Part shown: positions 21,410 through 24,989 of the stretch, one piece after another
Position numbering within the stretch: position 1 is the first letter of the stretch
Layout: the number at the start of each line of letters is the position of its first letter
Sequence record: MT782071.1
Reading direction: 5' to 3' (one strand)
Origin: Escherichia phage JN02
Length of the DNA: 64,000 bases
Position numbers and translations under genes: made by a program
The notes under the pieces: model-generated
Told to the model about the DNA's origin: nothing
What the model saw: the letters and a program-made list of their open reading frames with translations, nothing else
The model's database searches: none

Positions 21410-22411
21410 TTATTTCAGTAAAGTTACTTCAGAGATTTCCTCCCAACCATCTTTATCAGTTGAAATAAAATCTGCTACATAAAGAGCCGTACGTAATGAT
21501 ACGTTGCGAAGACGAGATACGTTAGCCTTCATCCAGGACAATGCTTTATACGTTTCTGCATCTGTCAGACCACGTTTCTGCATCATGTCAGTAGATAATA
21601 TTACATCTTCAACTCGAACCATAATCTCTTCATTAGAGTGTACTCCAAGGTCGAGATACACTGAACGAGATACTAAAGCTTGAAGGTGTGGAGCAAGCTT
21701 CGAACCGCGTTCTAACTCTTTATCGATATCAACGTTTGTAATGAAAACGATAGTACCTTCAAACTCAAATTCTTTATCAATACCCTTATCATCGAGATAA
21801 GATGACGCAGTGCTCCAACAAACTTTGCGTTTATCTCCGGTATCTAATGCTGCTTTAAGAAGGTTCAAGATGTCCATATCTGAGAATACGTCAACGTCGT
21901 CGATTAAGAGAACGCTATCTGCATCACGGTTGAGCCAAAGTTGTTCGTAAAGGCCAATACCAGAGATTTTACCATTAATGCTTTTGTATTTGATGAAACC
22001 ATTATCGTTAGCATTATTAAGTGCTTTATCCAGAGAATACGTCTTACCAATACCAGCTGCACCTGAAATAATGAGTGAACGAATTTTGCCATCGATAATG
22101 CCATTCGTCATCATGTTCATTACTTTAAAGCGTTTGTTGATACGAGTTTTCATATCTTCAGTGCTTTCAACAACTGCAACTGGTGATGTCTCAACTCCTT
22201 CCATTACGATGTCTGATTTGAAGACCCATACTCCACGTTCAGAACCATCAATCATAACGAAAATTTTACCATCACCTAAGTGGGAACATTCAGGATTAAG
22301 CTTTGCCGGGAACCAGGTCTTTGTAGCAACATAAGAACCAGAGATTTCGTTATTACGATAGATACCTTTTTTGATTTGAACGTTGAACATTTTATTCTCC
22401 AATTTACTCAT
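21410..22411 (-). CDS. P-loop NTPase (Walker A/B) protein, 333 aa
   Basis: Walker A GAAGIGKTYSL and Walker B-like hhhhDD (ADSVLLIDDVD); family not assigned. Confidence 0.7.
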   Translation of the reverse strand: MSKLENKMFNVQIKKGIYRNNEISGSYVATKTWFPAKLNPECSHLGDGKIFVMIDGSERGVWVFKSDIVMEGVETSPVAVVESTEDMKTRINKRFKVMNMMTNGIIDGKIRSLIISGAAGIGKTYSLDKALNNANDNGFIKYKSINGKISGIGLYEQLWLNRDADSVLLIDDVDVFSDMDILNLLKAALDTGDKRKVCWSTASSYLDDKGIDKEFEFEGTIVFITNVDIDKELERGSKLAPHLQALVSRSVYLDLGVHSNEEIMVRVEDVILSTDMMQKRGLTDAETYKALSWMKANVSRLRNVSLRTALYVADFISTDKDGWEEISEVTLLK

Positions 22412-22478
22412 TTCGTTTCGATAGGTCTATAATAACATATCCTAAAAGCATGTACACTACTTTTTAAAAATATTTTAA

Positions 22479-22505
22479 CCCCCTAAAGGGACCCGAAGGT
22501 CCCCA
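22479..22505 (-). repeat. Conserved 3' hairpin element, copy 1 (GGGACC-cgaa-GGTCCC core)
   Basis: accccctaaagggacccgaaggtcccca immediately after the stop of the 88-aa gene; the same ~27-nt element recurs at 41737-41763. Confidence 0.6.
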
Positions 22506-22508
22506 TAT

Positions 22509-22775
22509 TTACTTATCGCACTTAGCAACATAATTAGGCATATCACAGAATACGGAGCGAGTAACTACTCGTCCCTTTGACCATGCTTCAGTTGCTTGTC
22601 CAGCCGTGCTATTAATATAGCTTGATTTAATGTTCTCAATACCCTGAGAATGTGATGCATTTACAGAACCATTAGAAGGTCCAGAAGACTGGTTACCACC
22701 AGCTCCTGCACCCGTGGTAGCACCAACAGAGAATGCCATCATTACTGCGAATAAACCAATTACTAATTTTTTCAT
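22509..22775 (-). CDS. Small secreted protein (88 aa) with N-terminal signal peptide
   Basis: MKKLVIGLFAVMMAFSVGA signal-like N-terminus, Gly/Ser/Asn-rich middle, two C-terminal Cys; late promoter directly upstream. Confidence 0.6.
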   Translation of the reverse strand: MKKLVIGLFAVMMAFSVGATTGAGAGGNQSSGPSNGSVNASHSQGIENIKSSYINSTAGQATEAWSKGRVVTRSVFCDMPNYVAKCDK

Positions 22776-22806: not shown

Positions 22807-23796
22807 TTATTTATAGTAAGAATTATGATTTTCGAGATAGACTTGTTCAAGGAAGTCATCCCAGAAACTCATATCTACTTTTTGTTGCATACCGTTCTTG
22901 GCAGCTTGTTCTGACGCATGTTCAACTTGGTCAACGATATCTTCTAGGAATTCTTGTACAGTTTTAAACGTATGTTTACCAAGCTTAACATCAAGAATAA
23001 ATGGAGCATCCTGAAGTGGGTAAACCAGGTCGCCTGTTTTGTAAATTTCTAATAATTGAAGTCCACCACGACATGCATGACTCAATGCTTTCCAGTCAAT
23101 ACCTTCATTAGCTTCTGCCTTACGAGCACGTTCGCCATAGTTCTCTTCTAGTTTAACAAGGATGGCATTGAACTCTTTATTGGTTAACGTGTCTTGGAAT
23201 TTACGGTCCAACAGATTATAGAATGTTTGCTTACCTGTTTTCTCGTTTTCGGTTTCAACCCATGAAGCAAATTCACCTACAGGCAGAACATTCTTCATAT
23301 GTGATAAACGAATTACTGCACCATTATCAAAGTATTGTCCCCATTCATTAGAACGTTTAAGGGCTTGACGAAGAATAGCCAGTCGAGAACCCTTGACACC
23401 ATATTTAGAAGCTTGCTTACGGACATACCCTAAATAAGATTTCATGTTAGTGGTATAGAAGCGAGACCTGTTATCTTGAATATACTTCCATACATCAGGC
23501 AAATCAGATTTAACTACTAGACTTTGTGGAGTGTGAAGCATATCTAATGCGACTGTTTCACCATCTGCAGCTAGTTTAAAGAAATATTTGAGACTATACA
23601 ACTCATGGTCAACGTCGTCTTTTGTGTTCTTAGAAGACGTGTTATTCGTGTTCTTGCTCATATGTTCTTTAACGTTACCGGTCAAGATATCACGAGCATG
23701 AGGGACGTAAATTTCTTTAAAATCGACGTCCGATTCAGGAGTAGACGTTCCATAAAGGTGACTACCAAAGTAGCCTTTCATAATTGTTTTCATCAT
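22807..23796 (-). CDS. Nucleotidyltransferase-fold protein (329 aa)
   Basis: N-terminal GSHLYGTSTPESDVDF fits the Pol-beta-type NTase signature G[GS]x9-13Dh[DE]h; C-terminal helical domain; subfamily not assignable by eye. Confidence 0.6.
   Translation of the reverse strand: MMKTIMKGYFGSHLYGTSTPESDVDFKEIYVPHARDILTGNVKEHMSKNTNNTSSKNTKDDVDHELYSLKYFFKLAADGETVALDMLHTPQSLVVKSDLPDVWKYIQDNRSRFYTTNMKSYLGYVRKQASKYGVKGSRLAILRQALKRSNEWGQYFDNGAVIRLSHMKNVLPVGEFASWVETENEKTGKQTFYNLLDRKFQDTLTNKEFNAILVKLEENYGERARKAEANEGIDWKALSHACRGGLQLLEIYKTGDLVYPLQDAPFILDVKLGKHTFKTVQEFLEDIVDQVEHASEQAAKNGMQQKVDMSFWDDFLEQVYLENHNSYYK
22808..22815 (-). promoter_or_regulatory. Late promoter (TATAAATA) upstream of the 88-aa secreted-protein gene
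   Basis: Minus strand TATAAATA about 33 nt upstream of the ATG at 22775, overlapping the stop of the upstream gene. Confidence 0.5.
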
Positions 23797-24266
23797 TTAG
23801 CCTTATATTCAAGAGTAGGACAGATTTTTTCTTTACGAGCTTTAAGGTATTCACCTATTAATGATTTCTTACGTTCAATAGGCTCAAGTCCATTTTTAAT
23901 TCGTTCTTGGTTTTGTGCAATGAGCTCAATTTCTTTATAATATTTTCTGTCGTTATATTTGTCTAACAACCAAGACGGGCCAATTACCAACCCGGTAGCA
24001 ATAAAAGCCATGACTGCTACCATTAAAATGCCTACGCCAATTGAGGCCGGAACTAATGTCCATAGACTGCTAAAAACAAAGAATCTAGTTAAAAATTCCT
24101 GGCCAATGATTACGACTGCTGCTAAAATAGCAAATCCAATAATTGAAACAGCCAATACTGGGATTAACGTTTTCCAAAAATAAGCACACAACGTTTTCGG
24201 ACGATTCCATGTACTATTGAACATGGCATAAATTTTAAAGTGCCAAGAGTTTTCATTGATAATCAT
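23793..24266 (-). CDS. Membrane protein (157 aa)
   Basis: Two or three hydrophobic TM-like segments. Confidence 0.6.
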   Translation of the reverse strand: MIINENSWHFKIYAMFNSTWNRPKTLCAYFWKTLIPVLAVSIIGFAILAAVVIIGQEFLTRFFVFSSLWTLVPASIGVGILMVAVMAFIATGLVIGPSWLLDKYNDRKYYKEIELIAQNQERIKNGLEPIERKKSLIGEYLKARKEKICPTLEYKAK

Positions 24267-24275
24267 AATAATTCC

Positions 24276-24806
24276 TTATTTCAAAGTCGGGATAATAGAA
24301 TCAAGATAAGCTTTAAGAGCAACTGCTTCATTTTTGTCTAATGTAATGATATGTTGACGAAGGTCGTCAATTTGGCGAATAACTACGACATCACCGTCTT
24401 CATAAGAAGGATTAACTCCCAGGACTGTTGTATAATCAGGGCGGTCCTGATTTGTAATAAAAGCATTACGGCATTTAGCCCATTGAAGTTTGGCCTTTTT
24501 GGCTGTTTCAGATTCCATGAATTCTTTCACTTTAGCGACGAATGTTTTCCAATTATTAATAGAAAAACATTCGTCTTCAGTTTCGATATTAACCCCACTA
24601 TAAAGTCCGTGATAAAAACGAACTTGAAGGTCTTCATTAATGTTAATTACAGATGCATGGCCGGGTGGATTGAGTTTCAAAATCTTGTCCAGTTCCATAG
24701 GAAGAATAGTGACCGCATCATCTTCTTGTGTCAGAACATACACATGGCCACGTTTTTCGATACATAAATCACCAAACAACTCGGTCGTTTCAATTACAGT
24801 TTTCAT
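24276..24806 (-). CDS. Hypothetical protein
   Basis: Track ORF 24276..24818; start set to the ATG at 24806 (MKTVIETT...), which overlaps the upstream small ORF stop. Confidence 0.6.
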   Translation of the reverse strand: MKTVIETTELFGDLCIEKRGHVYVLTQEDDAVTILPMELDKILKLNPPGHASVININEDLQVRFYHGLYSGVNIETEDECFSINNWKTFVAKVKEFMESETAKKAKLQWAKCRNAFITNQDRPDYTTVLGVNPSYEDGDVVVIRQIDDLRQHIITLDKNEAVALKAYLDSIIPTLK

Positions 24807-24807
24807 A

Positions 24808-24989
24808 TTATTCACCAATTAAAGTTTCGACAAAATTCACCAAAGCATTCTGGCAAGCATCAACCTGATTTTCATAAAAGTCTACGTTATCATTTACCGC
24901 ATGATAAGCTACATCATTCAAATCTGAATCGGCTTCACGTAAGTCATGGATAAGGTCCATCAATTTATTAGCTTGTTCACGGGTCATTT
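24808..24989 (-). CDS. Small hypothetical protein (58 aa, below track threshold)
   Basis: Manual translation MTREQANKLMDLIHDLREADSDLNDVAYHAVNDNVDFYENQVDACQNALVNFVETLIGE; its ATG overlaps the TGA of an upstream 36-aa hydrophobic ORF. Confidence 0.3.

Follow-up and report, generated by a model that had tools for sequence, protein, structure and literature searches.

NrdC.11 of Escherichia phage JN02, a long-form RlaP-family nucleotidyltransferase and candidate tRNA repair enzyme

What does the nucleotidyltransferase (NTase) gene at positions 22807 to 23796 of Escherichia phage JN02 do for the phage? The window analyzed here is a stretch of 64,000 nucleotides (sequence record MT782071.1), in which a first-pass annotation had singled out this interval as one open reading frame (ORF). 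The ORF list bears this out with exactly one ORF of 329 codons; the strand, which had not been given, is minus, and the plus-strand frame over the same positions is riddled with stops. By sequence, the ORF is the ortholog of T4 nrdC.11 and belongs, as a long form, to the RlaP (PF10127) branch of the Pol-beta nucleotidyltransferases. Both the gene and the family are already known and annotated, as T4 nrdC.11 and Pfam RlaP. As for its role, we lean, with some reserve, toward an RNA 3'-end nucleotidyltransferase that would refill nucleotides lost from host-cut tRNA before ligation.

22807..23796, minus strand: nrdC.11 coding sequence, RlaP-family nucleotidyltransferase (ORF list; 329 aa, or 328 aa from the second ATG at 23793).

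Within the sequence ATGA, the first ATG (23796-23794) shares bases with the TGA that ends the upstream gene. The second ATG, one codon further in, is the start used by most database entries; the choice between them is immaterial. The protein begins MMKTIMKGYFGSHLYGTSTPESDVDF. The JN02 GenBank record holds the identical protein (100%) under the product name "putative nucleotidyltransferase," and many GenBank and UniRef entries for NrdC.11 carry the name "thioredoxin." A Pfam scan detected no thioredoxin domain in the ORF protein; this label is wrong and seems to have been propagated by annotation from the gene's name, nrdC.11.

The single significant Pfam match is PF10127, "RlaP, RNA repair pathway DNA polymerase beta family" (49.7 bits, E 5e-13; gathering cutoff, 23 bits), which spans residues 7 to 136, equivalent to profile positions 23 to 143 of 249. 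PHROG 388, "nucleotidyltransferase," is matched end to end (E 1e-125), database homologs of the ORF carry a precomputed PF10127, and T4 NrdC.11 (NP_049709.1; "nucleotidyltransferase" in RefSeq) is 78% identical over the full length. The Pol-beta-type fold named at first pass thus holds, both by the Pfam match and because all 15 best Foldseek matches in PDB are NTases. The families offered within that fold (CD-NTases, MNT/Abi enzymes, and CCA-adding enzymes) were not the right ones; the protein belongs to RlaP, a family named separately from these. Other Pfam families were looked for down to E ≤ 0.1, and none of CD-NTase/SMODS, AbiEii, NTP_transf_2, or the CCA/poly(A) polymerase head matched the protein; PADLOC, scanned to the same threshold, gave zero matches, and the sole NCBIfam match was MntA, whose 12.9 bits fall short of the cutoff of 60. 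We rejected a CD-NTase because no SMODS/CD-NTase model matches in Pfam or PADLOC and because no cGAS-like structure is among the fold matches listed and no effector or sensor gene is conserved beside this one. The MNT of an MNT-HEPN (type VII) toxin-antitoxin pair, a small (about 100 to 150 aa) MntA/NTP_transf_2 protein beside a HEPN toxin with an Rx4-6H motif, does not describe this gene. An AbiEii or MenT-type NTase toxin was rejected for want of an AbiEii (PF08843) or DUF1814-type match by Pfam or PADLOC, and a CCA-adding enzyme or class II poly(A) polymerase for want of a PolyA_pol (PF01743) match by Pfam. Structures of eukaryotic poly(A) polymerases and terminal uridylyltransferases (PAP/TUTase) matched at a Foldseek probability of ≤ 0.1 only.

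Is the enzyme intact? At first pass, a G[GS]...DxD motif had been read at the N terminus, and the pattern G[GS]-x(10)-D-h-[DE]-h does fit there (MMKTIMKGYF-G11-S12-HLYGTSTPES-D23-V-D25-F). It is no chance match, because the protein matches PF10127 and G11, S12, D23, and D25 are invariant in an alignment (A1) of 51 homologs sharing 33 to 52% identity with the ORF protein. Invariant in A1 are G11, S12, G16, S22, D23, D25, N57, D61, Y132, R223, K236, R243, and G273, while D63, D85, W235, and H240 are kept in at least 90% of the homologs; a second alignment of 122 sequences agrees. When the NrdC.11 type was compared, profile to profile (hhalign), with nine canonical short RlaPs, residues 2 to 90 aligned and D85 paired with an invariant Glu of canonical RlaP.

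23389..23778, minus strand: N-terminal Pol-beta-type NTase domain, residues 7-136 (Pfam PF10127; hhalign, residues 2-90; strands 3-10, 24-31, 45-49, and 62-68 in the AlphaFold2 model).
23761..23766, minus strand: G11-S12, the hG[GS] motif, where strand 1 ends and helix 12-15 starts; invariant in A1, pairing with the GS of canonical "ESGSRAWG."
23722..23730, minus strand: D23-V24-D25, the [DE]h[DE]h metal-binding motif on strand 2, pairing with the DYD of canonical RlaP (hhalign).
23608..23616, minus strand: D61-V62-D63, h[DE]h on strand 62-68; D63 pairs with the invariant Asp of canonical "LDxNGWD."
23068..23097, minus strand: D234-W-K236-A-L-S-H240-A-C-R243, the DWK[AS]x[SH]HAxR motif, the most conserved C-terminal motif and the signature of the NrdC.11-type subfamily.

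Both D23 and D25 are invariant in the 51 and in the 122 homologs, and each is kept in 59 of 61 cellular homologs. Two neighboring acids compete for the third place. The D63 position is D or E in 60 of the 61 cellular homologs and the D61 position in 57; T4 NrdC.11 has Asn at the latter and retains the D63 equivalent. We rejected D61 as the third carboxylate since it is D63 that pairs with the invariant Asp of canonical RlaP and T4 has Asn at D61. In the AlphaFold2 model, V62-D63-H64 lies on the strand adjoining the DxD strand and forms the classical h[DE]h. Therefore, D23/D25/D63 are taken as the triad, with D63 probably the third catalytic carboxylate and D61 an additional conserved acid. By its residues, this triad is complete and the protein probably catalytically competent; with D63, the acid that the first-pass annotation wanted checked, in place, it is not an obvious pseudo-enzyme. 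The T4 Asn stands against Asp in all of the 51 and 122 homologs, and the translation of the T4 reference NrdC.11 (NC_000866 55435-56445; L004 1436-2446) holds an X from an ambiguous base, so the T4 laboratory allele may be atypical. Toward the C terminus, K236 and R243 are invariant among the 51 homologs and D234, W235, and H240 are at ≥ 90%; the DWK motif at 234 to 243, as read from its residues, is not the HEPN Rx4-6H motif.

That the gene is a decaying or noncatalytic remnant, with no function of its own in the phage, is hardly credible. T4 tolerates deletion of nrdC.11 (PMC9825161; a T4 mutant record likewise), a few phage records hold split or truncated copies, and T4 has its Asn at D61, but the catalytic and C-terminal signature residues are all intact, and of the 1520 phage records that tblastn matched to the ORF protein, 1449 have it at ≥ 80% coverage. 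The 1520 are mostly T4-like phages of enterobacteria, Aeromonas, Acinetobacter, and Vibrio. Among 1.84 billion cluster representatives (50% identity), 3241 clusters match at E ≤ 1e-3 and 740 at E ≤ 1e-30, most of the 3241 at full length; nearly all of the best 150 of the 3241 are 300 to 350 aa long with a full-length match. Proteins with the long NrdC.11-type architecture therefore make up a large family in their own right. As to the deletion, pseT and rnlA are likewise dispensable on hosts without the nuclease of the T4 prr system, and tolerance of nrdC.11 loss thus fits a conditional role.

What reaction should be expected of such an enzyme? Two distant relatives from P. fluorescens and P. 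aeruginosa, PfRlaP and PaRlaP, append one or two nucleoside monophosphates or their deoxy forms (NMP or dNMP) to an RNA 3'-OH, do not act on DNA or protein, prefer Mn2+, and favor the 5' half of a cleaved-tRNA mimic (bioRxiv 10.64898/2025.12.29.696909). According to the same preprint, Pseudomonas RlaP partly restores aminoacylation of religated tRNA missing one anticodon-loop nucleotide; in vitro, labeling by these enzymes extends to full-length tRNA, rRNA-sized RNA, and single-stranded RNA and shows little preference among NTPs. The PfRlaP crystal structure described there has an N-terminal NTase domain and a C-terminal helical domain whose last helix packs back on the NTase domain. The 3'-OH product of RlaP suits 5'-phosphate ligases, such as T4 Rnl1, better than RtcB, and T4 NrdC.11 is placed in PF10127, sequence similarity network (SSN) cluster 5 (10.64898/2025.12.29.696909). 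The name RlaP comes from comparative genomics (Burroughs and Aravind 2016, as recounted in 10.64898/2025.12.29.696909 and PMC7824862), which located PF10127 genes in RNA ligase operons. Iyer et al. 2021 (PMC7824862) reported RlaP as the most prevalent jumbo-phage NTase, with a distribution that mirrors that of RNA ligases, and predicted that it refills nucleotides taken out by nucleases such as RloC, before ligation. The family mechanism was thus predicted in 2016 and 2021 and partly demonstrated in 2025.

We infer that phage NrdC.11 has an activity like that of Pseudomonas RlaP, a tRNA substrate, and a partnership with PseT and RnlA. A two-metal site formed by D23, D25, and D63, probably with Mn2+, would add one or two nucleotides, untemplated, to the 3'-OH of a broken RNA. 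The best candidate for this RNA is the tRNA 5' half left when a host anticodon nuclease has cleaved the anticodon loop and one nucleotide has then been trimmed off (RloC type). PseT, the phage polynucleotide kinase/phosphatase, would first heal the ends by taking off the 3' phosphate and phosphorylating the 5' end; NrdC.11 would next replace what is missing, and RNA ligase 1 (RnlA) would seal the break. Of the counterdefense enzyme suggested at first pass, one part survives, in that a role on host tRNA is the leading hypothesis; the predicted chemistry is repair, however, not modification of tRNA or signaling nucleotides.

Does the predicted structure point the same way? The AlphaFold2 (AF2) model, built from the 122-sequence alignment (mean pLDDT, 88.7; pTM, 0.75), has an alpha/beta NTase core to about residue 100 with the four strands listed above and short helices, followed by helices at 100 to 155, a three-stranded insert at 177 to 201, and a helical bundle at 206 to 324 whose final helix is 309 to 324. 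The 250 or so mostly helical residues of the first-pass annotation are therefore partly right: the helices at 100 to 155 and the bundle agree with that description, whereas the alpha/beta core and the beta insert do not. The bundle is presumed to be the substrate-binding domain. The beta insert found no aligned counterpart in short canonical RlaP, as hhalign aligned the N-terminal domain alone.

23194..23268, minus strand: small three-stranded beta insert, residues 177-201 (AF2); its columns are indel rich in A1 and its length varies among homologs.
22825..23181, minus strand: C-terminal helical bundle, residues 206-324, with HEPN/KNTase-C-like four-helix topology.

The Foldseek matches to PDB are weak. 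The best is kanamycin NTase (KNTase; 1KNY and mutants) at E 2e-3, probability 0.99, and TM 0.27 to 0.33; 3C18 and Hailong HalB also appear, and LinB, DrrA, and GlnE are among the closest solved folds. Sequence searches of PDB with the protein and with the 51-sequence profile found nothing meaningful, in a PDB set without the PfRlaP crystal structure. Among predicted viral structures, many 230- to 290-aa "nucleotidyltransferases" encoded by giant viruses and by unrelated phages gave full-length alignments, at TMt 0.5 to 0.7.

These folds raise two other readings. NrdC.11 might nucleotidylylate a protein or small molecule, for example, to inactivate a host defense protein, as DrrA, GlnE, MntA, KNTase, and LinB modify their targets. 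KNTase, LinB, DrrA, and GlnE are indeed among the nearest solved folds, the NTase plus helical-bundle layout is like that of KNTase, and the C-terminal domain shows no sequence relationship to canonical RlaP; the family match, on the other side, is to enzymes whose Pseudomonas members leave protein alone. We regard this reading as improbable. Alternatively, the protein might make or consume a signaling nucleotide or oligonucleotide in the manner of a CD-NTase or HalB, as a decoy or to interfere with host immune signaling. HalB does occur among the fold matches, but it shares 15% identity with the protein, no cGAS or CD-NTase structure is among the fold matches listed, PADLOC gave no match and Pfam none to SMODS/CD-NTase at E ≤ 0.1, and no effector- or sensor-like partner gene is conserved alongside. 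This second reading is very improbable.

Do the genomic neighbors of related genes favor RNA repair? GTDB genomes scanned with the C-terminal signature yielded 155 confirmed relatives, from which 80 loci were kept (33 to 52% identity; Desulfobacterales, Nitrospirota, Alphaproteobacteria, some archaea, and others). Neighborhoods of 20 kb or less per locus were searched by tblastn with T4 RnlA, T4 PseT, and an RtcB and then by Pfam scans. In a minority of loci, the NrdC.11-type subfamily is genomically associated with RNA ligases and end-healing enzymes. One 4-kb contig, binned as Bathyarchaeota and possibly viral, carries on one strand within <4 kb (L012 62-3803) an NrdC.11-like gene (protein 41% identical to that of JN02), an NT5C-like gene, a T4-type Pnkp (AAA_33 plus HAD_PNKP), a 143-aa ORF, and an Rnl1-type ligase. 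A second locus (L028) has a PNKP phosphatase, an NrdC.11-like gene, a 164-aa ORF, an SNF2-like helicase, and RtcB, and a third (L087) has an AAA_33 kinase directly upstream of the NrdC.11-type gene. RtcB lies ≤10 kb from the NrdC.11-type gene in 10 of the 80 cellular loci; it is expected in about 1% of random 20-kb bacterial windows, a rough estimate from one or two copies per genome with no computed control. Among viruses, one contig (L093) has RtcB 4.3 kb downstream of the NrdC.11-type gene, and in Sinorhizobium phage phiM7, the homolog is flanked by two RNA ligase genes, one on either side at a distance of about 4 kb.

An SNF2/ResIII-type helicase gene adjoins RtcB near the NrdC.11-type gene in a deltaproteobacterial locus (L028 8240-10969) and a viral metagenome contig (L093 13976-16572), and a similar helicase is found near the NrdC.11-type gene in L090 (14341-15396) and L091. 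Such helicases may be a further recurrent partner of these genes.

The same neighbors bear on a reading in which the enzyme works on other RNA ends, for example, rebuilding the damaged 3' CCA of host or phage tRNAs or tailing host or phage transcripts to alter their stability. It draws on the same family and active-site evidence as the refilling of cut tRNA, and the Pseudomonas RlaPs label varied RNAs in vitro with little NTP specificity; moreover, the phage carries tRNA genes of its own, and a ligase is not nearby in most NrdC.11-type loci. On the other hand, Pfam found no CCA-adding family match, and the recurring neighbors are end-healing and sealing enzymes (Pnkp, Rnl1, RtcB), which indicates internal breaks rather than 3' termini. 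Since the family adds one or two nucleotides only, tail making is not expected. We consider this reading unlikely, if worth bearing in mind.

Several observations weigh against the refilling of cut tRNA. The Pfam model covers just the N-terminal 130 residues of the ORF protein, and the C-terminal 190 do not align with canonical RlaP by profile (hhalign); therefore, substrate choice could differ. Most of the 80 cellular loci have no ligase within 10 kb. In phage ST0 (97% identical), RNA ligase 1 (RnlA) and polynucleotide kinase are encoded 86 to 90 kb from nrdC.11, so that, judged by ST0, the gene is not in an operon with rnlA or pseT and co-occurs with them at the genome level only; such co-occurrence within T4-like phages is uninformative because these phages share most genes. 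Finally, the preprint itself labels T4 NrdC.11 "of unknown function" (10.64898/2025.12.29.696909).

Why would a phage keep the long form? A Pfam census of 150 flanking proteins found one recurrent neighbor, the short canonical RlaP, which lies immediately downstream of the long NrdC.11-type gene, on the same strand, in 20 of the 80 cellular loci. The gap between them is -1 to 135 nt in 19 of these and 289 nt in L054; in two more cellular loci, a short RlaP lies 4 to 5 kb from the long form.

Tandem long and short RlaP genes, same strand: L013 5266-6979; L016, L021, L026, L032, L039, L043, L050, L054, L061.
The remaining tandem loci: L062, L066, L069, L072, L074, L075, L076, L079, L081, L082.

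The short partners are about 250 to 280 aa long and match PF10127 over its full length (E 1e-73 to 1e-81). The catalytic residues are intact in both partners, and the long and short forms are therefore probably not redundant. Apparent fusions of NrdC.11-like and canonical RlaP proteins (L074 and L071, from blastp clustering) were rejected because they proved to be ORFs read in the wrong frame of G+C-rich DNA; what L074 holds is a tandem pair. Placement of the long form directly upstream of the short one in about one-quarter of bacterial loci suggests a division of labor or a heterodimer, comparable to the split CC- and A-adding enzymes. This conserved pair of two NTase genes seems not to be described in the RlaP literature examined. 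In phages, the two forms hardly overlap: the long form occurs in the 1520 records noted above, and the short form in 86, mostly phiKZ-like Pseudomonas phages, with no Escherichia phage among the matches listed for it.

We put forward, tentatively and with more doubt than confidence, that the NrdC.11 type is a distinct long RlaP branch with a recognition domain of its own, a tandem two-enzyme pairing, and, in T-even phages, the part of a third tRNA repair enzyme. Its C-terminal domain (DWKxxSHAxR, HEPN-like bundle, and beta insert) could recognize a particular damaged tRNA or dictate the nucleotide added. If this is true, T-even phages would have, in the long form alone, the third enzyme that the classical PseT/RnlA pathway lacks and could survive anticodon nucleases that excise the wobble base to defeat repair. 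The PseT and RnlA tRNA repair of T4 was the first RNA repair system described, and it has been proposed that hosts responded with RloC-type nucleases, whose removal of the wobble nucleotide renders simple religation useless. Should NrdC.11 refill that nucleotide, T-even phages would possess a repair kit of three enzymes, which would account for a further round in the phage-host arms race over tRNA. The refill idea itself is no new concept: it was published as a prediction in 2016, and the family chemistry was demonstrated in late 2025.

Where does the gene sit in JN02? The 8.1 kb around the ORF are 97 to 98% identical to Mosigvirus Escherichia phages such as JS09, ST0, and TU01; on this identity, the host genome of the ORF is that of a JS09/ST0-like Mosigvirus, a T-even phage. 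Gene order matches the T4 nrdC-tk region, the hyperplastic accessory region of T-even phages, in keeping with the accessory region supposed at first pass, and the ORF sits between the nrdC.10 and mobD.1/y05I homologs.

24276-24818: mobD.1/y05I homolog.
23793-24266, minus strand: predicted membrane protein, 157 aa, PHROG 944, category "moron / host takeover"; its stop and the nrdC.11 start share the sequence ATGA.
22509-22775, minus strand: 88-aa protein with a signal-peptide-like N terminus, PHROG 2243, directly downstream of nrdC.11.
22477-22503, minus strand: G+C-rich hairpin GGGACC-TTCG-GGTCCC, then T-rich sequence, after the 88-aa gene (read from the letters and matched by a terminator-like scan, on both strands).
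21410-22411, minus strand: nrdC.10 homolog, a P-loop protein, PHROG 1250.

The hairpin is probably the 3' end of the transcription unit that holds nrdC.11. A promoter scan of the window was uninformative (20 sites against 19.7 expected). Just before nrdC.10, a TGCTTTTA box is followed, after about 12 nt, by TATAGA, an arrangement that, as read from the letters, resembles a T4 MotA-dependent middle promoter. In the nrdC.10 homolog, the P-loop region is matched below threshold by models for AAA_22, AAA_16, and STAND NTPases, and the C terminus is matched weakly by HTH_37. Elsewhere in the window, two adjoining phage tRNA genes, tRNA-Arg(TCT) and tRNA-Met(CAT), occupy 43125-43281 on the minus strand. 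None of the T-even neighbors (nrdC.10, the small secreted protein, the membrane protein, and y05I) was found near NrdC.11 homologs in 89 loci of other phages and cellular genomes, which suggests that nrdC.11 works as a stand-alone module. In one such setting, a 61-kb viral contig (L094 8350-13698), an IS605-type TnpB gene (OrfB_IS605/Cas12f-like) directly follows the NrdC.11-like gene; a triplet of DNMK-like, SSB, and 142-aa ORF genes precedes the two, and a second copy of the triplet comes after them, so that the block looks like a recent insertion or duplication.

How does the gene compare with known systems? In T4, nrdC.11 lies in the same place between nrdC.10 and the mobD.1/y05I homolog, on the same strand, and all signature motifs are common to both proteins; T4 differs in having the HNH homing endonuclease gene mobD just upstream, where JN02 has the gene for the 157-aa membrane protein, in its Asn at the D61 position, and in a variable region that is 8 residues longer. 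The nearest solved structures, KNTase ANT(4') (1KNY) and Hailong HalB (9DBH), share the Pol-beta NTase core, and KNTase also has a C-terminal helical bundle of the HEPN class, as in the NrdC.11 model. Class II CCA-adding enzymes offer a functional analogy only: they too add a few nucleotides to an RNA 3'-OH, independently of a template, in tRNA repair, but Pfam does not match the ORF protein to the PolyA_pol/CCA families, the accessory domains differ, and CCA enzymes work on the acceptor end and add strictly C-C-A, whereas RlaP has little NTP specificity. A further comparison is with the canonical RlaPs (that of the rtcB-rlaP-rtcA operon of P. fluorescens and P. aeruginosa, B. subtilis YcgL-like proteins, and phiKZ gp237), which belong to the same Pfam family, have a homologous NTase domain, and share with the NrdC.11 type the GS, the DxD, the third Asp, the overall NTase-then-helical plan (as modeled by AF2), and the association with RNA ligases and end healing. 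Canonical RlaP is about 250 to 280 aa long and matched by the whole of PF10127; the NrdC.11 type, at about 310 to 340 aa, is matched in its N-terminal half and adds a DWKxxSHAxR C-terminal signature and a beta insert of its own.

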